63,634 nt of DNA from Eubacterium sp. CAG:841 (lineage in GTDB: Bacteria; Bacillota; Clostridia; Oscillospirales; CAG-272). The position numbers and the translations under genes are program-made. The notes under the pieces were generated by a model. It ran no database searches and was not told the origin of the DNA. It saw only the letters and a list, made by a program, of their open reading frames with translations. Of the stretch, positions 11,258 through 19,996 are shown piece by piece (the stretch's first letter is position 1; every line of letters begins with the position of its first letter). Where the stretch lies: assembly GCA_000437375.1 (NCBI GenBank), contig FR898229.1:45697-109330 (forward strand), in the 5' to 3' direction.

Positions 11258-11330
11258 GCCCCATTAGCTCAGAAGGTAGAGCACATGACTTTTAATCATG
11301 GTGTCCGGAGTTCGACTCTCCGATGGAGAC
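11258..11330 (+). tRNA. tRNA-Lys (anticodon UUU), 3' part supplied by the integrated element (attL)
   Basis: Hand-folded cloverleaf. D arm is GCTC/GAGC. Anticodon arm is CATGA-CTTTTAA-TCATG. T arm is CGGAG-TTCGACT-CTCCG. The acceptor GCCCCAT/ATGGAGA has 2 mismatches, and no CCA is encoded at this copy. Confidence 0.85.
11289..11328 (+). repeat. attL core: 40-bp direct repeat (tRNA-Lys positions 32-71)
   Basis: CTTTTAATCATGGTGTCCGGAGTTCGACTCTCCGATGGAG is identical to 19215-19254. Confidence 0.95.
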
Positions 11331-11355
11331 GGGCATTTTTACAGCGCAGAAAAAA

Positions 11356-12246
11356 TCATGGTGTCCGCTTTTTGCCTATCGAATTATCAAGCGGACTGTA
11401 TTCATCGAAGTTACGAAGGACATAAGCCGGCGCGAAATGAACGTAATGCTCAACCATCTGCAAAGATGTATGACCGAGTATGGTCTTCAGTGTGAGCATA
11501 TCGCCGGAATTGACGAGATAGCCGGTAGCAAACGTGTGCCGGAGCAGATGAGCGTGCAGACGTTCGATTCCGGTGATCTTCTTGAGCTTGCGGAACATAT
11601 TCTTGAGAGTATCGACAGTGACGGCGGATCCGTCAGCCTTGAGGAACACCTGCGGCAGATCTGACTGCGGTCTGATCTGCAGGTAAGCCTGCAGCCGTTC
11701 GGCTGCCAGAGCGCCGATAGGAACATAGCGCTGCTTGTTACCCTTGCCGGTTACGAGAGCATAGCCTTCGGCAAGGTGCAGGCAGCTTGTCCGGAGCGTT
11801 ATGACCTCTTCTCTGCGAAGTCCGCTTCCGAGCATAAGCGATAGCATGGCAGCGTTGCGCTTGCCTTCAAAGCTGTCGGGAAGCGCGGCAAACAGCTTTT
11901 CTATCTCTGCCGGAGTGAGAACGTCCTTTACGGTCGCTCTCGCTTTCGGCAGTCTGAGCTGCGTCGGAATACATTCCTTAACGCAGCCGTTATTATAAAG
12001 CCAATTCAGAAAGGCACGGAGTGCGCGGACATGATCCTGAACGGTCACGCTGTTCTTGCTTTCGTCCTCAGTCAGAGCGATGACATATTCACGACAGAGC
12101 CGAAGCGTTATCTTCCCGCACTCTATATTGCCGACAAAGGCTATAAAGCCGTCTATCGTCTGTCGGTAGTAGGTTATAGTGTGCGGCGAGGATCCTCGAC
12201 ACTTATGGTCAAGGATATAATCATCAAATGCGTTCTTTATCGTCAT
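11356..12246 (-). CDS. int: Tyrosine recombinase / phage integrase
   Basis: C-terminal catalytic motifs 'HLLRHTFAT' and 'LGHTSLQMVEHY' are present, plus an N-terminal SAM-like domain. The gene is adjacent to attL. Confidence 0.9.
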   Translation of the reverse strand: MTIKNAFDDYILDHKCRGSSPHTITYYRQTIDGFIAFVGNIECGKITLRLCREYVIALTEDESKNSVTVQDHVRALRAFLNWLYNNGCVKECIPTQLRLPKARATVKDVLTPAEIEKLFAALPDSFEGKRNAAMLSLMLGSGLRREEVITLRTSCLHLAEGYALVTGKGNKQRYVPIGALAAERLQAYLQIRPQSDLPQVFLKADGSAVTVDTLKNMFRKLKKITGIERLHAHLLRHTFATGYLVNSGDMLTLKTILGHTSLQMVEHYVHFAPAYVLRNFDEYSPLDNSIGKKRTP

Positions 12247-13106
12247 CTTCCAACCTCTGCGACTGCGTATCGCCGGAACATAAGATCCTGCTTAAGATCC
12301 GAAACATTGCCGGTGTACTCTGTCAGATCGAATACCTGCAGAGCTTCATCGAGCGAACGATATCGCTTGACGGCGAGATAGTCGTTTTCATAGTCCGGAA
12401 AAAATGCGTCTCTTATGCGTTCCTCGCGAATAATGAATTCGGCGCGCTTCAGACCTTTTGAGCAGTAATATAAATGCGCTCCAAGCTCTTTTATACTCTT
12501 TGCAAGATTTTTGCTTATGTATTTCATTACATAATTTGAAGCGGCTTCTTTGCTTCTTACAGGCTCGAGGATCGTATAGCCGAACTTGTCCGCAAACTGG
12601 ATCCAATTGAATACTTCTTGTCCCTCTCTGAGCTTATCGACTATATACTTCGGCAATTTATTCGGAAACTGAATTCTGAACGCTTCATATTCTCTCTCTG
12701 AAAGTCCTTTGATAAAGCCGTGCATGTGCCAGGCTCCGTCCTGATGTTGCTCCGGCACTAACATGTACTTGATCTGTAAGCCGTGATTATGATTGTAGTC
12801 CTTTATGAACCTTGCAAGATCCTTGCGGAATTTTTCAAGATTGTATCTGTCATACTTCTTTGGTGAAAGCGTGAGCGTTACGAAGAACTGCCAATCGTTA
12901 CACATTGCAAGCTCGAAGATCGTGCTTCTTGCCCTTGAAATGTTGTTTTCAAGCTTTTCGTCGTTTACGTTTTCCTCTTGTTTTTCCCTGTCCGGAAACT
13001 CAAAAACTTTGTCAGTTTTATACACAACGAGGCGGTAATATCCGTCCGTATATTTCTTGATTTCTGCGAAATTACTGTAAAAGTGCCGATTATCCTTGCG
13101 GTACAT
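12243..13106 (-). CDS. HUH-superfamily rolling-circle replication initiator (Rep)
   Basis: Motif I is 'FFVTLTL', motif II (HUH) is 'WHMHGFI' and motif III is 'NYVMKYISK' with the catalytic Tyr. The stop overlaps the int start (ATGA). Confidence 0.75.
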   Translation of the reverse strand: MYRKDNRHFYSNFAEIKKYTDGYYRLVVYKTDKVFEFPDREKQEENVNDEKLENNISRARSTIFELAMCNDWQFFVTLTLSPKKYDRYNLEKFRKDLARFIKDYNHNHGLQIKYMLVPEQHQDGAWHMHGFIKGLSEREYEAFRIQFPNKLPKYIVDKLREGQEVFNWIQFADKFGYTILEPVRSKEAASNYVMKYISKNLAKSIKELGAHLYYCSKGLKRAEFIIREERIRDAFFPDYENDYLAVKRYRSLDEALQVFDLTEYTGNVSDLKQDLMFRRYAVAEVGR

Positions 13107-13192
13107 AGGTTTTTGCCCCCTTGAAAGTGTTGAATAACGCGAAAAATGATACTAAGTCAAGTTTAGTCTTTATATATTATTAGATCTAATTT

Positions 13193-13291
13193 CGCGTGCG
13201 CACACGCGCACACGCACGCGAGGAGCTTTTATTGCAATTCTGTCGGCACTGCCGGGAGTGCCGGAGAGGGGGCTGCGCTCCCCCTCTCCGG
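13193..13291. promoter_or_regulatory. Candidate replication origin / packaging-signal region of the element
   Basis: There is a 28-nt perfectly alternating pyrimidine-purine tract (13193-13220). Two GC-rich hairpins follow: CGGCACT/AGTGCCG at 13244-13263 and a 12-bp stem CCGGAGAGGGGG/CCCCCTCTCCGG at 13261-13291. Confidence 0.4.
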
Positions 13292-14140
13292 ACTCTCCCA
13301 GGAAGCTTGCCCGAACATGTCCCGTTTGCACTCTTTGCGGACATCGAGAATGTATCTCGTCTTAAGCTTGTCCCACTTCCACCGGTCAGGTACGTCATGA
13401 GTGAAGCCAAGATCATATGCTTCGCTGTAAACCTTACTGTCGTAACGTTTTGTATATGGCATCCAAAAGAAGTAGGTGTTGAAGTCGTCCTTGCCTACGT
13501 CCTTTATGTTGACTATGTCGTTTGTGACGGAGATCTCTCTCCATTTCACCTTGCCAAAAGGCAGGAACAGACAGCGGTGAAGTCCGCGAAGCTCTATCAG
13601 AGCGTTGAAACGGCCTCTGATAGGCTTTGCTATGAAGTCTGAAGCCTGTTCGGTGAAATAGCAGTGTCCCGGTATCTCTGTGTCCATCCACTGCCTGTCA
13701 AAACGTATACTGACCTGCACGTTGTTTTTTACAGCAGGGATATCGAACTTATACTGATCACAGATCTGACCTACCTCGTCGATAAAGGTAATCGAATTTC
13801 TGTCTTTGAGCTTCTCGGCGAAAAGATGTTCCGTTGTCAGCACGTCTGACATTCTTTTGTTTCTGCGGTTGCCGAGCCTGATCGGTATGTTACTGTAAAC
13901 GTGCGGCTTGCTCTTTCTTTTGTCCTTTCGGAAAGGATGAAAGAAGCAGCTTCGGCGGTACACCGCATAGGCTTTCTTATACCATTTCACGACATGCATA
14001 ACTGCCATATAGGTCTTGCCGGATCCGAGTCCGCCGATAAAACAGGTGAGGTACTCCTGCGGTATCGGCTTGCTCAGGATGATCGAAACGACAAGCCAGA
14101 CTATGAACACGCCGGCGATTATTATCAATGCGGCTTTCAT
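13229..14140 (-). CDS. Zot/pI-like P-loop ATPase (filamentous-phage assembly protein)
   Basis: Walker A is 'GGLGSGKTY' and Walker B is 'ITFIDEVGQ'. The size and position downstream of the coat genes match inovirus gene I. It has an N-terminal TM helix. Confidence 0.65.
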   Translation of the reverse strand: MKAALIIIAGVFIVWLVVSIILSKPIPQEYLTCFIGGLGSGKTYMAVMHVVKWYKKAYAVYRRSCFFHPFRKDKRKSKPHVYSNIPIRLGNRRNKRMSDVLTTEHLFAEKLKDRNSITFIDEVGQICDQYKFDIPAVKNNVQVSIRFDRQWMDTEIPGHCYFTEQASDFIAKPIRGRFNALIELRGLHRCLFLPFGKVKWREISVTNDIVNIKDVGKDDFNTYFFWMPYTKRYDSKVYSEAYDLGFTHDVPDRWKWDKLKTRYILDVRKECKRDMFGQASWESPERGSAAPSPALPAVPTELQ

Positions 14141-14694
14141 CAGTAGCTGTACACCTCGCCTTCATAGATGTGGCGGATCTTCAAACGCTCGAAATAGTTG
14201 TGCAGAAACAACTTGTTTTCGTCAGATATACCGTAAGACTCGGCAGCGTCCTCAAGATTGTACATAAGGAACGACAGGTGCTGATAGCTCCAAGCAGAGT
14301 TCGGATCGTCCAAGAAGGCTTTGAAGCTCTTAAGGTTGAACTTTGTCCAAGTCTTCTTGAGGAAACTGTAATTTGCATTTATGTAGGCAAGCGAACTATC
14401 GTAAATCGCTTGGATCTTGGTAAGGTCATCTTCCGTTTGCTGTTCCGTTGAGAACGGCGAAAAAAGATTGTAAACGCTTGCAACGACTTTGTTTAACACA
14501 TTGGTAACATTGCCGCCGAACTTTATCACGCGGGCAAAGCTCATGCTGAGAAGCCCGGCATTTATATCACGGCATTCCGTAAGGTCAAGCTGCGGAGAAG
14601 TGGCATCGAACGTGTAATCATAGGAGGAAGCAAAGCCGAACAATACGGCAAGAATCACGCAACCTATAAGGAAAAAACAAAGCGCTTTATTCAT
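14140..14694 (-). CDS. Element-encoded membrane-anchored protein (pVI-position, unknown function)
   Basis: Start at the ATG at 14694 (MNKALCFFLIGCVILAVLFGF). One N-terminal TM segment. The stop overlaps the Zot start (TGATG). Confidence 0.55.
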   Translation of the reverse strand: MNKALCFFLIGCVILAVLFGFASSYDYTFDATSPQLDLTECRDINAGLLSMSFARVIKFGGNVTNVLNKVVASVYNLFSPFSTEQQTEDDLTKIQAIYDSSLAYINANYSFLKKTWTKFNLKSFKAFLDDPNSAWSYQHLSFLMYNLEDAAESYGISDENKLFLHNYFERLKIRHIYEGEVYSY

Positions 14695-14699
14695 AAAGA

Positions 14700-17024
14700 T
14701 CAACCGCCTTTCGAAACTTTCAGTATAATGATCACCGCACCGCCGATAGCTATAATGCCGATTATCGTAAGCAGCGTAACGCCGCCTACGGAAATGTTGG
14801 ATCCTACATAAAGCGCCGAGCCGGTGAACGCGCCGAGTATTTTTGTAACAAAATCGGCAACGCCGGAATCTGACGATTTATTTTTCTGATAATTTATGCC
14901 GGCTTGCTTGCCGGCTGTAAAACTTACGTCGTCATATGTATCGTTATCATTATCCACGACGTGGATCAGGCTGCAGGCTCCGGATCCGTTGCCTGCGGTA
15001 TAGCCGGCTGAATATGCCGAATCGTCATAGCCGTCGTTATTCTTATCCACGACGTGCGTGTCAAGGCAGACATCTATCTGTATTGTGTTACTGTATTTAT
15101 CGCCACTGTCGGTCGTTTCTACAAGTCTGAACTGTACCCACTTGCTGTTATGGGCTTTCTCGTAATTCCAATCATAACTGTCTATTTCCCAAAAGCCGTC
15201 CGTATAATCAGTAGAATTTGGAAGAGGCGTCCAACCGTCGTCTGTCAGATAGTCCTGATACGTCATATACTCTATATACACGGAGTTGCTGTCTTTTATT
15301 TTTCTCCAAGAAAGCTGTCCTTGCGAGTACGAAAGCAACGGCGATGCTGTGGAAGCTGTTGCAGCTCCACTGTTATACCCTGCTGTATAACTTGAGTCGT
15401 CATAGCCGTCGTTATTTGTGTCCGTAACGTGTGTTTTGTCACAAGCTCCGGCGGCAAGCGCAGCCTGATATTCAGCTTCGGTGTAATAGCGTATTGTCGG
15501 CATTGTATAGCCTGTCAATACTTGTTTGCTTTTAGAGCATATTATATCGTCGCAAGAATATATAAAATCCCCCCATGTATCAGGAGCATAAGGCGAAATT
15601 ACAGAAAGCGTACCGTTGCCATCGGTTGTATCATACAGACACAAAAAACTCTGTGATCCGGATGAAGTCGAACCGGATGAATCGGTCGTATACGAAAAGC
15701 AAACGCGAACAGTGACAAAAAACTTTTCGGGAGTATAAAAAGACCAACCAGTAACTGTATCAATGCTTGAACCAACCGGCGTAGTATTATCATAATTCTT
15801 TTTATCTGTTATATTAAAGAACGGCGCCAAGTCGGTAATCCTATTCGGTTGAATATCTTCAACAGGCGAAGTGTGCGAAAGCGAATAAACATCATAAACG
15901 CCGACACCGTTATTCTCATCAACATAAAACCGCCCGTAGCTTTTTGCAGAAGTGGATTTTACACTAAAATACGGAAAAGCGTTTTGCGTTATTTGTTGCA
16001 GTCCACTTGACTTCTCTATTTTGCAATAATCGAAATATGTAGCATCGCTATTTACCAAGAGCAGATGATAATAAGTATCATCGATAAAAATGCGAGAAGT
16101 TTTATAGATATAATAATCGTCAAAGTATTCATAACAAGGCAGATTAGAAACTTTGGTATATGAATTCAAATAGATTGTGGAAGTAGTGGACGAAGTGTTG
16201 GAAGAAAACGCATTGATAATAGCCGACATAGGCACCGAATAAGTATAAAGAGAGCTGGTTTTATGATAAGAAGTTGAATAACCATACTTTGAAGAGCTGT
16301 AATCAACTCCGTAAAAATACAAGCAAGAGTTATAATAAACAACGTCATTTACACCGAAATAGTATGATTTACCGGAAGTATGCTTCACATATATAATGTC
16401 ACGAGCCAAAGTAGTATCACCGACATGATAACGACCTATATAAAGAGTATCTTCGTCATAATCAAAATCCATTGAGACAAAGTAATAATAATCACCGTAT
16501 TTGAAAGAATAGTTTAAGTCGTTATACCAAGCGCCAGGGAAAAAGCTTGAAGTTCTTGTATATAAATTCAAGTTGGAAAGATTTTCGGGAGTTTCGGCAA
16601 GAGTAAGACGACCGCCAAGCACATATGAAGAAGACATCGAAGTAAAATAATATTTTGTTGTGGATGAAGAAGGGTATGAAGAACCAGCAGAATTAACTTG
16701 TGTAATCCCTATTGTGTGTTCTCCTGTGGTAAGCTTGTCGCAATACGCAAGTGTTCCTACGTATTCGGAAACAGGACCGACAATATCAACTTTGAAATTG
16801 TTTCCGACAATCTCGCCGTCAACTGTAAAATACAAACCAATACAAGAGCTATCCCAAGCCGTAACCTTTGCGGTAAGCTGTCCGTTTTGAGGAATAAATT
16901 CATATGAAACAGCCGTAGAAATAGGCTCTGATACCGCCGAAACCGTCAGACTGCCGGCTACGGTCAGAGCGAGGACAAGCACGGCGGTGATAAGCGCCGC
17001 AACCCTTTTATTTTTCTTTGACAT
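14700..17024 (-). CDS. Large secreted, C-terminally anchored protein (pIII-like adsorption/minor coat candidate)
   Basis: The ATG at 17024 sits 8 nt after GGAGG. It has a signal peptide 'VAALITAVLVLALTVAGSLTVSA' and a C-terminal TM 'VTLLTIIGIIAIGGAVIIIL' followed by KVSKGG. Three 'HV.D.NNDGYDD' repeats are present. Confidence 0.65.
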   Translation of the reverse strand: MSKKNKRVAALITAVLVLALTVAGSLTVSAVSEPISTAVSYEFIPQNGQLTAKVTAWDSSCIGLYFTVDGEIVGNNFKVDIVGPVSEYVGTLAYCDKLTTGEHTIGITQVNSAGSSYPSSSTTKYYFTSMSSSYVLGGRLTLAETPENLSNLNLYTRTSSFFPGAWYNDLNYSFKYGDYYYFVSMDFDYDEDTLYIGRYHVGDTTLARDIIYVKHTSGKSYYFGVNDVVYYNSCLYFYGVDYSSSKYGYSTSYHKTSSLYTYSVPMSAIINAFSSNTSSTTSTIYLNSYTKVSNLPCYEYFDDYYIYKTSRIFIDDTYYHLLLVNSDATYFDYCKIEKSSGLQQITQNAFPYFSVKSTSAKSYGRFYVDENNGVGVYDVYSLSHTSPVEDIQPNRITDLAPFFNITDKKNYDNTTPVGSSIDTVTGWSFYTPEKFFVTVRVCFSYTTDSSGSTSSGSQSFLCLYDTTDGNGTLSVISPYAPDTWGDFIYSCDDIICSKSKQVLTGYTMPTIRYYTEAEYQAALAAGACDKTHVTDTNNDGYDDSSYTAGYNSGAATASTASPLLSYSQGQLSWRKIKDSNSVYIEYMTYQDYLTDDGWTPLPNSTDYTDGFWEIDSYDWNYEKAHNSKWVQFRLVETTDSGDKYSNTIQIDVCLDTHVVDKNNDGYDDSAYSAGYTAGNGSGACSLIHVVDNDNDTYDDVSFTAGKQAGINYQKNKSSDSGVADFVTKILGAFTGSALYVGSNISVGGVTLLTIIGIIAIGGAVIIILKVSKGG

Positions 17025-17184
17025 GCAAAACACCTCCAAGCATTGATATAAGGAGCAGGATTATCGCAAGCGACATCCCATAGGTAAGAAGCTCCACTAC
17101 ATTTATACGCGCCATTACCTTTACGGCTGACGTCGCAATGTGCAGCGGAAGATCTACAAACAAAATTTTAAGCACGTTCATCAT
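17008..17184 (-). CDS. Small hydrophobic protein (minor coat candidate)
   Basis: 58 aa counted from the ATG at 17184, which overlaps the upstream stop (ATGA). It has one clear TM segment, 'GMSLAIILLLISMLGGV'. Confidence 0.45.
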   Translation of the reverse strand: MMNVLKILFVDLPLHIATSAVKVMARINVVELLTYGMSLAIILLLISMLGGVLHVKEK

Positions 17185-17486
17185 CGCCTTTTTGTCACCA
17201 CCCATACCACAAGGAATATAGGCAGGAACACCACAAGCGATGTTGTTGCCATTGTAAACAGCACGATAAGACTTGAATTGTCCCTGATAACGTCTGCCGG
17301 GAAGATATACGCCCAGCAGTCATAGATTATGCTGTATATATTGCTCGTCAGATCTGTCTCTGTCTCCGTCGCTTCGGCTGCCGTTTCTATCGGTTCGGAC
17401 ACATCCGTTCCACCGTCTGCGGCATATGCCGGAACACACATCAGAGCGAGGATCAGAACTGCGACAAGCGCCGTTTTTATTTTCAT
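17181..17486 (-). CDS. Coat-like protein: signal peptide, acidic N-terminus, TM, basic C-terminus (major coat candidate)
   Basis: Signal peptide 'MKIKTALVAVLILALMCVPAYA|ADGG'. The mature N-terminus is acidic and the C-terminus is 'VVFLPIFLVVWVVTKRR'. AGGAGG RBS. Confidence 0.6.
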   Translation of the reverse strand: MKIKTALVAVLILALMCVPAYAADGGTDVSEPIETAAEATETETDLTSNIYSIIYDCWAYIFPADVIRDNSSLIVLFTMATTSLVVFLPIFLVVWVVTKRR

Positions 17487-17506
17487 AATTACCTCCTGTT
17501 AGAACA

Positions 17507-17528
17507 AAAGCCCCGTTTCCGGGGCTTT
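17507..17528 (-). terminator. Intra-operon rho-independent terminator after the 183-aa coat-like gene
   Basis: On the minus strand: AAAGCCCCGGAAACGGGGCTTTTGTTCT. Confidence 0.65.
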
Positions 17529-17545
17529 ATTTGTTTTGATTTTTA

Positions 17546-18094
17546 TCAGCCTACTCTTGCACGTGACTTGATCCACTTCCATATGCCGAAGCCGGCACCG
17601 AGTATGATCGCAGTTATGATGAGTACGCCGAGTATTGAAAGCTCACCGGTATCCTTGTTGATAAAGATTACGTCGAATGTGCTTACTGCCGCGCCTGCTA
17701 CGGACGGAACGAACGATCCTACTCCGTCGCCGACTTCCGTCAGAATCTGCTTTATGAAGCCGTCTCCGGCTACCTGAAGCGAGATCATTGTGGAAGGTGC
17801 GCTCTTTGTGTAAGATGTAGCATTGCTTGCCGGCTTTGCTACTACCGTGACAAAGTATGTTCCGGATTTTACAAGATATCCGGAAAGGTCGACCGACGTG
17901 CCGGTTACCGTTGCTATAAGCGTATCGCCGGAATAAACGTCGTATGAAGCCGCATTTTCTACGGTCGTCCATGAAAGCGTTTTATCCGTAAGCGTTACGG
18001 TGGGTGCGGTAAGTGCAGACGCTGCGCTTACGCCGAGTATGGCAAAGCTGCAGATAACGAATGCGCAAAGGATAATTGCGAAAATCTTTTTCAT
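17546..18094 (-). CDS. Secreted Fn3/Ig-like domain protein with a pVIII-like C-terminal TM + basic tail
   Basis: The ATG at 18094 follows AAAGGAGG. Signal peptide 'MKKIFAIILCAFVICSFAILGVSAASA'. An 'LSWTTVENAASYDVY' Fn3-like module is present. The C-terminus is 'ILGVLIITAIILGAGFGIWKWIKSRARVG'. Confidence 0.65.
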   Translation of the reverse strand: MKKIFAIILCAFVICSFAILGVSAASALTAPTVTLTDKTLSWTTVENAASYDVYSGDTLIATVTGTSVDLSGYLVKSGTYFVTVVAKPASNATSYTKSAPSTMISLQVAGDGFIKQILTEVGDGVGSFVPSVAGAAVSTFDVIFINKDTGELSILGVLIITAIILGAGFGIWKWIKSRARVG

Positions 18095-18146
18095 TGAATT
18101 AACCTCCTTTCCTCGTTTGTTTATGTTAATTTCACGTGAAATCATA

Positions 18147-18437
18147 TTATGCCTTCTCCTTTCCCGGAAGAAGTCTGACTGCCGTAAGCTTCGGCTCTCT
18201 TACTCCGAACACCTGATATACAAGCTCGATCTCCTGATTGAGAAGATCCGAAAAGTTTTTTGTGCCTATAAGCGATTCTTCTTTGAAAGGCACCTTGACA
18301 GTGTCACAGAAAAATCCGTTTACCTCCGGCACTTCATTTGTGAAGACGTACAACTCTACGTTATCATACGTTACCTTGCGTCCGTCCTCCGATACGAAGT
18401 CGCCTTTCTTTCTTCTCCATCCCATTACTTTTATCAT
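18147..18437 (-). CDS. First gene of the structural operon, unknown function (gV-position; ssDNA-binding protein is only a positional guess)
   Basis: 96-aa soluble ORF with ATG and an AAGGA RBS. It lies directly upstream of the coat-like genes. Confidence 0.5.
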   Translation of the reverse strand: MIKVMGWRRKKGDFVSEDGRKVTYDNVELYVFTNEVPEVNGFFCDTVKVPFKEESLIGTKNFSDLLNQEIELVYQVFGVREPKLTAVRLLPGKEKA

Positions 18438-18492
18438 TGCTTTTCCTTTCTACCCGTGCGTTATGCTTTCGGGATTTTGTGTGTTATGATTT

Positions 18493-18566
18493 ATGACCTA
18501 TCGGTCATATCTGATATAATCATATTACTAATCAGTCATAATGTCAATATAATCTATCGGTCATAT
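18493..18566. promoter_or_regulatory. Divergent promoter/operator region of the element
   Basis: The 13-bp direct repeat CTATCGGTCATAT occurs at 18498-18510 and 18554-18566. The first copy lies within the palindrome ATGACC-N4-GGTCAT. On the plus strand there is TGATATAAT (18512-18520). On the minus strand there is TTGACA (18548-18543), an 18-nt spacer, then TATGAT. Confidence 0.5.
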
Positions 18567-18607
18567 GATAAAATTATTAGAATTAACAAAAACGGAGGAC
18601 GTTTATT

Positions 18608-18835
18608 GTGTACTATTACCAAAGATTGAAAGATTTAAGAGATGATGCGCACCTCAGACAAGATCAAATAGCGGTTATATTGAAAACTTGCCAGGAGCAG
18701 TACAGCAAGTACGAAAGAGGGGTGCAAGAGCTTCCCATGCATCACTTTATTACTCTTGCCAAGTTCTACAACGTATCGCTTGACTACCTTGCCGGACTTA
18801 TAGACGAGCCGCGCAAGCTGCACGATGAGAAATAA
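18608..18835 (+). CDS. XRE-family HTH regulator (prophage repressor candidate)
   Basis: GTG start 8 nt after GGAGG. 'QDQIAVILKTCQEQYSKYERG' is a typical Cro/CI HTH. It is divergent from the structural operon. Confidence 0.8.
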   Translation: MYYYQRLKDLRDDAHLRQDQIAVILKTCQEQYSKYERGVQELPMHHFITLAKFYNVSLDYLAGLIDEPRKLHDEK

Positions 18836-18865
18836 AAAAAGCGAAACGGAAGTTCCGTTTCGTTG
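18834..18865. terminator. Stem-loop after the repressor gene
   Basis: An A-run is followed by CGAAACGGAA/TTCCGTTTCG, a 10-bp inverted repeat with a minimal loop. The downstream T-run is weak. Confidence 0.45.
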
Positions 18866-19214
18866 GCCCGTGACCGGCTCTCTCCGGCGCACGCTCTGCG
18901 GAGCTTAGCTTCTCGATTCACTACAACCGCTACGGCGGGATTCTGAACGATCTGCGGATCGGGATAGTTCAAAGCAAAGCCAATTTACTCTGTTCAACAG
19001 GTCTTATCTCCATCTTGGGCGGGCGAACCTTATCGGCGGTTCTCCCTTGCCATCCCTCTCCCTCCGAGAACGCGATAACATTTGTGCCGATTTGAAGCGA
19101 ATACACGCGCTCTAAGCGTATTTTAAGACATAATCAAGCTGATTTGACATCCGATTAAGAAAGGGAGGCTTGTGGGGCTTCTAAACCCTCTGCGCCGACG
19201 GAAGCAAATTCAGG

Positions 19215-19254
19215 CTTTTAATCATGGTGTCCGGAGTTCGACTCTCCGATGGAG
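19215..19254 (+). repeat. attR core: 40-bp direct repeat, followed by the native tRNA 3' end (C-ACCA)
   Basis: Identical to 11289-11328. It continues as ...ATGGAG-CACCA and then a terminator. There is no tRNA 5' half upstream. Confidence 0.95.
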
Positions 19255-19345: not shown

Positions 19346-19627
19346 TTACGGGGTAAACTGTGAAACAAGCTCTTTCAGTTCGGCTATTGCCTCACGCATG
19401 ATGTCACATTGACTGCCCAATTTCAAAATTTGCCTTTTCATATCTTGCAACACTTCATCTGCAGGCCAAGCTTTTTTCTGTTCCTCGGCAAAAGTCTCCG
19501 GAAGTTCCGCTTTGTCCAATCCAAGCATAGCAAGATCGACGTTAAGTCCGATAAAAAGTCCCATTATAGTCTGATCGGTTTCGTCGATTTCTGCAAAAAG
19601 TTTTTCAATTTCTTCTTTAATCTTCAT
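19346..19627 (-). CDS. Hypothetical protein (acidic, helical)
   Basis: 93-aa ORF, divergent from the XRE gene. No recognisable motif. Confidence 0.5.
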   Translation of the reverse strand: MKIKEEIEKLFAEIDETDQTIMGLFIGLNVDLAMLGLDKAELPETFAEEQKKAWPADEVLQDMKRQILKLGSQCDIMREAIAELKELVSQFTP

Positions 19628-19768
19628 ATAAGAATGCCTGCTTTACATATTTATGGTCTTATTATAACATACATAAATACGTAAATCAAGTACATACGAA
19701 CGTATGAATGATATAATTTTTCAAAATGTACGCAATTTATGCGGGAAGCGGTGAAAAGGAGCGGCTTT

Positions 19769-19996
19769 ATGCACTGTTATCAAAGGTTGCGCGACTTAAG
19801 GGAAGACAAGGATTTAAGTCAGGGAAAAATTTCACAGCTTTTGAAAATATCTCAGCAGCACTACTCAATGTATGAAATGGGCAAGCGTGAGCTTCCGATG
19901 CATCATTTCGTTACCCTTGCAAAATTCTATAACGTATCGCTTGATTATCTTGCGGGACTTACAAACGAGCCGCGCGAGCTTTATAAAGACGAGTAA
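19769..19996 (+). CDS. XRE-family HTH regulator, paralog of the prophage repressor
   Basis: The ATG at 19769 follows AAAGGAG. By manual alignment, 47 of 75 positions are identical to the 18608-18835 product. The C-terminal halves are nearly identical. Confidence 0.8.
   Translation: MHCYQRLRDLREDKDLSQGKISQLLKISQQHYSMYEMGKRELPMHHFVTLAKFYNVSLDYLAGLTNEPRELYKDE

Follow-up and report, generated by a model that had tools for sequence, protein, structure and literature searches.

A predicted coat-type protein fused to an Fn3-like domain in an inovirus-like prophage of Eubacterium sp. CAG:841

We found that a 7.9-kb inovirus-like prophage, integrated in tRNA-Lys at positions 11289-19254 of a 63.6-kb stretch of Eubacterium sp. 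CAG:841 DNA (63,634 nt of contig FR898229.1, hereafter the window), encodes a membrane protein in which an Fn3-like domain is fused to a 73-residue module, referred to as A, that recurs in a group of related phages. A is very likely a virion protein of some kind and, with less certainty, probably the major coat protein of the group. The explanation that best covers the observations as a whole, to which we give even weight for and against, consists of an Fn3-fused major coat protein, a leaky hairpin terminator behind its gene and an Fn3-bearing filament shaft. The element itself is a filamentous-phage (Tubulavirales) prophage, with a Zot-like ATPase, a rolling-circle replication protein (Rep), an integrase, attachment (att) sites and small co-oriented genes. 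Its genes are transcribed from the minus strand in the order 96-aa gene, Fn3-fused gene, hairpin, gene B, gene C, pIII-like gene, 187-aa gene, pI/Zot-like gene, Rep and integrase, and this gene order is kept in 15 related loci (given L numbers below).

Architecture of the Fn3-fused protein

The Fn3-fused gene is a minus-strand open reading frame (ORF) at 17546-18094, with its ATG at 18094, its stop codon at 17546-17548 and a Shine-Dalgarno-like sequence (AAAGGAGG) 8 nt upstream of the ATG. The product has 182 residues, and the 183 aa reported in the first-pass annotation was a count of codons that included the stop. A 199-aa reading from the ATG at 18145 was discarded, having no Shine-Dalgarno sequence and not being conserved, with relatives of 181-182 aa. 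The signal peptide, Fn3-like domain, transmembrane (TM) helix and basic tail that the same annotation had described are all present. The signal peptide (residues 1-24/27, 18023-18094, minus strand) was read by eye as MKK, a 19-residue hydrophobic core and VSA/ASA, and is conserved in proteins P0002-4. The Fn3-like domain (residues ~27-108, 17771-18016, minus strand) bears the signature LSWTTVENAASYDVY...GTYFVTVVAKP. The A module (residues 110-182, 73 aa, 17549-17767, minus strand) is made of an amphipathic acidic stretch, a D-G loop, a 21-residue TM helix (residues 152-172, 17579-17641) and the basic tail KWIKSRARVG (17549-17578). The mature protein has about 158 aa.

The Fn3 part was identified using a five-homologue profile, which matched the FnIII domain of Bacillus circulans chitinase A1 (1K85) over residues 24-101 with E = 9.5e-5. 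Weak matches to Ig/Fn3-bearing tail proteins were obtained in PHROGs, and no match for this part was obtained in Pfam, even at E ≤ 10. The best Foldseek matches were FnIII domains, but with E of at least 0.08 and from a poor AlphaFold model. The AlphaFold2 model, built from 5 sequences, had an overall predicted local distance difference test (pLDDT) score of 49.6, with beta strands in residues 40-90, where the pLDDT was ~58-81 per 10-residue block. The structure models are poor because fewer than six full-length homologues exist.

The ratio of nonsynonymous to synonymous substitution rates (dN/dS) between the window and L001 or L008 was 0.09-0.12 for Fn3 and 0.08-0.09 for the module, with dS saturated at 1.5-2.1; against the closer L007 the values were 0.10 and 0.11, respectively. 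The low dN/dS together with the saturated dS indicates that the fusion is old and maintained, neither a recent accident nor decaying. These values bear on the explanation that Fn3 is cut from most subunits after export, or that the sub-lineage is defective or helper-dependent, in which case mature filaments would be largely bare. Such an outcome would agree with the display of foreign residues on all copies of the Ff major coat pVIII, which tolerates only ~5-8 extra residues (PMC4523942), and relatives with a fused copy retain a short copy, suggesting that mixed coats are workable. We nevertheless consider it improbable, since purifying selection on Fn3 is as strong as on the module (dN/dS ~0.1), the link between Fn3 and the module is ~4 residues long and has no recognisable processing site, none of the other phage genes is disrupted, and many assemblies contain the element.

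Donation of the Fn3 domain by the phage's own pIII-like protein was considered and rejected, as the pIII-like protein of the window showed no similarity to it and that of L001 a marginal one (E = 0.03). In the latter (L001 2154-3494), residues 229-310 share 29 % identity with the coat-fusion Fn3 (pairwise E = 0.03) and the pattern LxW..V.NA..Y.V.VY; this region may be a related Fn3 module in an adsorption protein.

Distribution and forms of the A family

A profile of residues 100-182 was searched against 1.84 billion representative proteins with a cut-off of E ≤ 0.001. Fifteen proteins were obtained, among which five were stand-alone forms of 69-77 aa, covered almost end to end and having no signal peptide, two were proteins of 125-128 aa composed of a long signal peptide and the module, and two, of 215 and 240 aa, were fused to a further domain. 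A word-seeded search carried out in addition gave 13 more or overlapping members, all of 69-77 aa. The family has no name or annotated function in the databases searched.

In distant relatives, whose pI is 45-57 % identical to that of the window, the slot of the Fn3-fused gene between the first small gene and B is held by a short A (L003, L004, L005, L009 and L010). The Fn3 fusion occurs only in the sub-lineage that comprises the window, L001, L002, L007, L008 and L016-18, in which pI identity to the window is 75 % or more. By tblastn, the whole 63.6-kb window contains one A module, which ruled out a second, short copy. An internal start yielding a plain coat, as in gII/gX of Ff, was likewise dismissed: ATG103 is confined to the window and L016, does not occur in L001, L007 or L008, and is not preceded by a Shine-Dalgarno sequence. 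With the fused copy as the only one and no conserved internal start, every shaft subunit would carry Fn3.

Two copies were found in each of two relatives, L006 and L021. The genome of L006, of 8.6 kb and with a 30-nt terminal overlap, is the only contig that is demonstrably circular; the contigs of L001 and L016 end within the att repeat with an uninformative 8-nt overlap. In L006, a 72-aa A gene is followed by a 54-nt gap with a hairpin, a 240-aa paralogue and, after 10 nt, gene B. The paralogue consists of a signal peptide, an N-terminal domain of ~170 aa and an A module that shares 84 % identity with the short copy. In L021 the order is a signal-peptide A with no added domain, a hairpin and the 215-aa fused form. 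The tandem paralogues lie at L006 1650-2645 and L021 2-1042, and in the long forms the extra domain measures 150-170 aa. This N-terminal domain is partly shared between the two (43 % identity over 117 aa, module included), and Pfam gave no match for it even at E ≤ 10. Across the family, the N-terminus of A bears no signal peptide, a signal peptide, or one of three different added domains, a variability expected of an outward-facing end.

A member was also found in a named virus. In bajarodino virus 71 (L019, PQ006122.1, genome of 5.3 kb), the 71-aa 'hypothetical protein' XHH64046.1 (836-1051), encoded directly after Zot, belongs to the A family, and its ORF matched the A profile with E = 1e-6 among 591 ORFs. 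It is the sole annotated small single-TM protein of this virus and is a candidate for its major coat protein, judged from its sequence.

The distribution also bears on the explanation that A is a phage-encoded cell-surface protein outside the virion, for example a superinfection exclusion protein, a lysogen adhesin or an assembly-site factor, with the hairpin ending a short early or lysogenic transcript. A signal peptide, Fn3, TM helix and basic tail do form a generic type I surface architecture, and the family has no annotated function. However, the module is present in every related phage genome, within the co-oriented structural block, even in minimal genomes of 5-8 kb with no accessory room; most members, at ~70 aa, have almost no ectodomain and are unfit for an adhesin or exclusion receptor; and the operator-like palindromes and divergent repressor described below suggest a promoter that is repressed in the lysogen. 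A location outside the virion is therefore quite improbable in our judgement.

A recurrent hairpin behind the A gene

The first-pass annotation had also noted a good intrinsic terminator (17507-17528) directly after the Fn3-fused gene. This was confirmed as a terminator-like hairpin at 17528-17498 (minus strand), in the 59-nt gap between the Fn3-fused gene and B, with a GC stem and GAAA loop (GCCCCG-GAAA-CGGGGC) followed by the U-tract UUUUGUUCU on the coding strand. The hairpin lies 20 nt past the stop codon, its six GC pairs can be extended to nine, and it is the second-best terminator-like site in 13 kb. Its 71-nt context has a minimum free energy of -19.2 kcal/mol (z = -2.6). The accompanying description of the operon as otherwise gapless is nearly right: genes overlap or abut from B through pI, and further gaps of 52 nt before the Fn3-fused gene and 122 nt between pI and Rep were found.

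Of 11 lineages, 10 have a hairpin with a T-run behind the A gene, and the stems are unrelated in sequence. The GCCCCG stem is present in the window, L007, L016, L001, L002 and L008; the stem is ATGCCCGG in L003, L009 and L004, ATAGCACCTTG in L005, AAGAGAGC in L006 (only after the short copy), GTCCCTCGGAATT in L010, AAAGGCGGGAGA with a weak T-run in L012, and GGGCAAG in L021 (GGGCAAG-TTATA-CTTGTCC-T6). No hairpin was found after the A gene of L013, the most distant lineage. Recurrence at the same position with unrelated stems goes beyond chance. Between the hairpin and B, a promoter scan found nothing promoter-like on the coding strand. The positional conservation gives indirect support to a putative leaky terminator or attenuator. 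In the two-copy relatives, the domain-fused A copy sits downstream of the hairpin and, being behind a putative terminator, should be a minority species.

In Ff phages (f1/fd/M13), gene VIII is promoter-proximal and highly expressed, and a rho-independent terminator follows it, before the low-copy structural and assembly genes. The A gene is likewise promoter-proximal and is separated by the terminator-like hairpin from the structural and assembly genes. The parallel with gene VIII that had been drawn for this gene concerns function and position alone, no homology to pVIII being detectable.

Assessment of A as the major coat protein

A is one of three small membrane proteins that the group has conserved, the others being B and C. 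Gene B (17181-17486, minus strand, 101 aa) encodes a signal peptide, an acidic E/T-rich N-terminus, a conserved W-YIFP-VI-DN core, a TM helix and a KRR end, and is present in all lineages, with or without the signal peptide. Its weak matches to TrbC/VirB2 and DUF3852 were discounted, being confined to the signal peptide. Gene C (17008-17184, minus strand) encodes a single-TM protein of ~58 aa with no signal peptide, its ATG overlapping the stop codon of B (ATGA); homologues of C were also found in L006 and L012. The inovirus criteria of Roux et al. 2019 include several single-TM proteins of 30-90 aa, a small genome and short co-oriented genes (PMC6813254). In this size range fall B (mature ~78 aa), C and the short A forms of relatives. 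The 158-aa mature protein of the window exceeds the range, whereas its 73-aa module and the 69-77-aa homologues lie within it.

The TM helix with a basic tail had been put forward as a hallmark of coat proteins. Both features are present, but the argument is not specific, because any N-out/C-in membrane protein obeys the positive-inside rule, and B and C share the topology. The candidates were compared by composition and charge with five major coat proteins, those of fd, Pf1, Pf3, PH75 and B5 (Orf5, taken from its sequence record). The A family contains 47-51 % A, G, S, T and V residues (AGSTV) and 15-25 % A+G, with a net charge of -2 to -5 in the N-terminal half and +4 to +5 in the last 12 residues. 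The corresponding values for the five known coats are 47-52 %, 23-30 %, -2 to -4 and +2 to +4. The core forms of B have 27-30 % AGSTV (17-18 % aromatic), 7-9 % A+G, -3 to -4 and +3 to +4, and C has 23-38 % AGSTV, 7-14 % A+G, -1 to +2 and +1 to +4. By this comparison of sequences, the composition and charge pattern of A match those of the known major coats, and those of B and C do not. The location of the A gene ahead of the recurrent hairpin, the variable N-terminus of A and the A-family ORF of bajarodino virus 71 also count in favour of A.

Several points weigh against A as the coat protein of an Fn3-covered shaft. No homology of A to known coats was detectable by Pfam, PHROGs, a PDB profile search or hhalign (probability ≤ 6 %). 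The same is true of B and C, for which PHROGs, Pfam, PDB hmmsearch and hhalign (≤ 6 %) detected none, and the homology test is weak in any case, since inovirus coat families are lineage-specific (PMC6813254). The gene directly before the pIII-like gene, the canonical position of gVIII and that of Orf5 (pVIII) in phage B5, is C and not A. B and C lie between A and the pIII-like gene, yet this order is not universal, as the A-like ORF of bajarodino virus 71 follows Zot; in Ino-03 and Ino-04, Zot lies between the coat and minor-coat genes (PMC8530359). Stand-alone A, at 69-77 aa, is longer than characterised mature coats (44-57 aa), and its conserved Pro and D-G loop argue against one continuous helix. 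The A profile gave a non-significant match (E = 0.019) to Orf7 of B5, which occupies the pVI position. The limit of ~5-8 residues for all-copy display in Ff, cited above, applies here as well, and a fully Fn3-coated shaft would be unprecedented. Finally, the gV-like, single-stranded DNA (ssDNA)-binding role of the 96-aa soluble product of the first operon gene (18147-18437, minus strand) is a proposal made from its position alone; for the fold of this protein, a PDB profile search gave nothing and Foldseek of a single-sequence model (pLDDT 55) nothing meaningful.

Part of this evidence would suit the explanation that A is a minor virion protein, tip-like as pVII/pIX or equivalent to pVI, with C or B as the major coat and a small number of Fn3 domains at one filament end, where they might form, for instance, a cap for adhesion or for the initiation of assembly. 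C then has the expected position and a size near that of B5 pVIII (57 aa), B and C are conserved as widely as A, the Pro and D-G loop are atypical of coat helices, and the weak match to Orf7 would point to pVI. Folded domains are also readily displayed on Ff pVII/pIX (PMC3044770), while full-copy pVIII display is limited to short peptides (PMC4523942). We consider this explanation unlikely, though it deserves serious attention. The range of composition and charge spanned by known coats includes A but neither B nor C, and C in particular has a neutral or positive N-terminal half and a C-terminal end of just +1 to +4. Moreover, a few-copy protein needs no promoter-proximal slot before a conserved putative terminator, and bajarodino virus 71 has no other annotated small single-TM ORF that could serve as its coat.

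Proposed assembly of the filament

With A as an Fn3-fused major coat protein, the precursor would be inserted by Sec and its signal peptide cleaved, giving a type I membrane protein. The Fn3 domain (~80 aa) would lie outside the membrane, joined by the 4-residue link to the first helix of the module, and the basic tail with its four positive charges would lie in the cytoplasm. Extrusion of the ssDNA would be driven by the pI/Zot-like ATPase, and A subunits would at the same time move out of the membrane and polymerise around the DNA, with basic tails toward it and N-termini outward. As the sole copy is fused, Fn3 would be placed on each shaft subunit and a bottle-brush filament would result. 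The hairpin, acting as a leaky intrinsic terminator, would separate a highly expressed promoter-proximal part (the 96-aa gene and A) from a weakly expressed distal part (B, C, pIII-like, pVI-like, pI, Rep and integrase). By analogy with the Ig-like/Fn3 decorations of tailed phages, the Fn3 layer might adhere weakly to glycans of the host-cell surface or of gut mucus.

In its strongest version, the proposal states that every one of the few thousand shaft subunits bears a folded Fn3, so that the phage would be a natural 'type 8 landscape phage' with a dense ordered brush, and the sister lineages would form mosaic 'type 88' filaments. We advance this version tentatively and would not count on it. 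With the axial rise of Ff geometry (~3.3 Å per subunit), the surface per subunit at a radius of 40-45 Å would be ~800-930 Å2, against a radial Fn3 cross-section of ~500-600 Å2; by this analogy, a dense Fn3 brush ~15 nm wide is sterically conceivable.

The secretin is one suggested contributor to the size limit of pVIII fusions in Ff. No gene for an outer-membrane secretin (pIV) was found in the phage, and the host looks monoderm from its sequence, with Gram-positive-type AddA (AddA_Gpos), EfbA/RqcH and PgfM-like genes present in the window; one proposed Ff size filter would thus be absent. The related loci derive from metagenome-assembled genomes labelled Clostridiales or Clostridia. Hybrid Ff virions are able to accept whole proteins (PMC4523942; PMC3044770).

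Comparison with known systems

The A module resembles Ff pVIII in having a single N-out/C-in TM helix, an acidic outer part and about four basic tail residues. It differs in its length of 73 aa, with a Pro kink and D-G loop, where the Ff coat is a 50-aa continuous helix. In addition, B and C are placed before the pIII-like gene here, an 80-aa folded domain appears to be fused at the N-terminus, and a pIV secretin gene is lacking. The order of signal peptide, displayed domain and coat module is the same as in engineered pVIII display, from which the present case differs in being natural. Engineered systems are classified as type 8, in which all copies are fused, and type 88, with a wild-type and a fused gene in one genome (PMC4523942). 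L006 and L021, holding a plain and a fused copy in tandem, resemble type 88, and the window lineage, whose sole copy is fused to ~80 residues as against the ~5-8 tolerated in Ff, resembles type 8.

Small beta-sandwich domains appended to structural proteins are also known from tailed phages, in T4 Hoc, the Fn3 repeats of lambda J and Ig-tagged major tail proteins. In some tailed phages, the decoration domain is carried by a sub-population of subunits only. Those are dsDNA phages with soluble capsid or tail proteins, whereas the element described here belongs to an ssDNA filament-type phage with a membrane-inserted helical subunit.

Phage B5 (Paulinoviridae), with the 57-aa pVIII Orf5, is similar in its monoderm host, its lack of a secretin and its small-residue composition, and its C-terminal motif KWIFRKAKS may be compared with WKWIKSRARVG here. 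Homology is undemonstrated, as hhalign aligned 8 columns only, with a probability of 6 %, and the B5 pVIII gene adjoins the pIII-like gene on its upstream side and encodes no additional domain. Characterised filamentous phages of Gram-positive bacteria comprise B5, Philemon, CAK1 and a few new isolates (bioRxiv 10.64898/2026.07.11.737922).

The gut Clostridiales inoviruses termed 'Clade-1' by Sugimoto et al., such as Ino-06, have a stand-alone Zot, Rep followed by a tyrosine recombinase, and integration at the tRNA-Lys 3' end (PMC8530359). The window element likewise has a stand-alone Zot, the same Rep-recombinase order and the same integration site, and is a member of this uncultivated gut Clostridiales inovirus group. 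Bajarodino virus 71 is linked to it by the A-family ORF. The Zot of the window element, however, is only 23-27 % identical to those of the Clade-1/bajarodino genomes in GenBank. No relative of the prophage was found in IMG/VR scans with a pI-like query or a full-length protein alignment query, and neither megablast of the prophage nor tblastn of the 182-aa protein matched GenBank phages. In the literature that was searched, no inovirus, Clade-1 and bajarodino viruses included, is described as having a coat-type protein with a natural domain fusion.

The predicted arrangement would be a natural display scaffold on an inovirus coat-type subunit that exists in single-gene and two-gene versions, the putative terminator setting the ratio in the latter. 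Major coats are regarded as minimal helices of ~50 aa, and a sole probable coat copy with an 80-aa domain would, if true, overturn that expectation, place a folded domain on every coat subunit, beyond the reach of engineered display, and imply that helical inovirus capsids in monoderm hosts accept full-length domain fusions on all subunits. The relatives seem to have evolved the two-gene hybrid layout on their own, which would indicate a secretin-free assembly tolerant of bulky cargo. For biotechnology, a new scaffold for high-density display of whole domains would be gained. For gut ecology, virion decoration by Ig-like/Fn3 domains, with its mucus and glycan adhesion, would be extended to ssDNA filamentous phages of gut Clostridia, for which there is almost no experimental characterisation; coat decoration in filamentous phages would then be a counterpart to the Ig-like domains of tailed phages. 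The A family (69-77 aa) is also a candidate major-coat marker for the clade.

Other genes of the prophage and flanking DNA

The prophage is bounded by an exact 40-nt direct repeat (D3, 100 % identity) at 11289-11328 and 19215-19254, with a spacing of 7926 bp. The left copy forms the 3' part of the target tRNA-Lys(UUU) gene (11258-11330, plus strand, called by ARAGORN), and the right copy (plus strand), a displaced tRNA-Lys 3' fragment, marks the prophage end. The tyrosine integrase (11356-12246, minus strand) matched PF00589 (E = 1e-34) and phrog_1 (E = 3e-50), and the G2P-like rolling-circle Rep (12243-13106, minus strand) matched PF23343 REP_ORF2-G2P (E = 1.6e-12) and phrog_3419 (E = 2e-13).

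The pI/Zot-like morphogenesis ATPase (13229-14140, minus strand) is a 303-aa P-loop protein with the Walker A motif GGLGSGKT. Its direct match in PHROGs was weak (phrog_197, Zot-like, E = 1e-3); its homologues P0023-25, with 36-39 % identity, bear PF05707 Zot, and tblastn against the annotated Zot of bajarodino viruses gave a best E of 8e-15. The Walker A and B motifs are invariant across the alignment. The 187-aa protein in the pVI position (14140-14703, minus strand) has an N-terminal TM helix and is kept in all relatives, as found using jackhmmer across loci.

The pIII-like gene (14700-17024, minus strand, likely start MSKKNK at 17024) encodes 774 aa, with a signal peptide, a variable body, DGYDD repeats and a C-terminal TM anchor. 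In L001 the protein is 446 aa long and in L003/L004 ~438 aa; the C-terminal anchor is conserved. At 14906-15434, the motif H-V-(V/T)-D-x-(N/D)-N-D-(G/T)-Y-D-D-x-(S/A)-(Y/F)-(S/T)-A-G occurs three times (repeat family D1). Repeats of the DGYDD...AG(Y) type were also found in the pIII-like proteins of L001, L003, L004, L006 and L012, and the DGYDD motif is reminiscent of Ca-binding Dx[DN]xDG loops.

Upstream of the structural operon, the promoter scan identified TTGACA-17-TATGAT at 18547-18519 (minus strand, region 18492-18566; 11/12 matches). Its -35 and -10 elements are bracketed by a palindrome, (T)ATGACC-GATAG-GTCAT(A), at 18492-18510 and 18548-18566 (repeat D13). The two palindromes are probable operators, as judged from their placement, for the divergent XRE-type helix-turn-helix (HTH) repressor (18608-18835, plus strand; PF01381/PF12844). 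The divergent-repressor arrangement is common to L001, L003, L004, L006 and L016.

The closest relative in the genome collection is L007 (CAVKJG010000002.1), whose pI shares 94 % identity with that of the window and whose host flanks share 85-88 %. It is labelled 'Sphaerochaetaceae bacterium', in conflict with the Clostridia/Clostridiales labels of the other relatives, and the label may be a binning or taxonomy error.

Just beyond attR, a second XRE-type HTH gene (19739-19996, plus strand) is 63 % identical to the prophage repressor. It is adjoined by a divergent 93-aa ORF (19346-19627, minus strand), and a similar segment occurs on the L008 contig. The region 19346-19996 has the appearance of a relic of another, related element and might confer immunity.

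On the attL side, comparison of the window (11320-11345) with L016 (7880-7953) showed that ~40 nt, CACCAAAAAACCGCCTATACGGCGGTTTTTTTCTTTTCTG, comprising the tRNA 3' end CACCA and a terminator hairpin, are missing from the window. The reconstituted tRNA-Lys ends in ...GATGGAG-AC and not in ...GATGGAGCACCA; the displaced fragment at attR retains the proper end, and ARAGORN still calls the gene. Just outside attL, past the tRNA, an M23 peptidase gene (PF01551, 10121-11155) belongs to the host DNA and is not a phage lysin.

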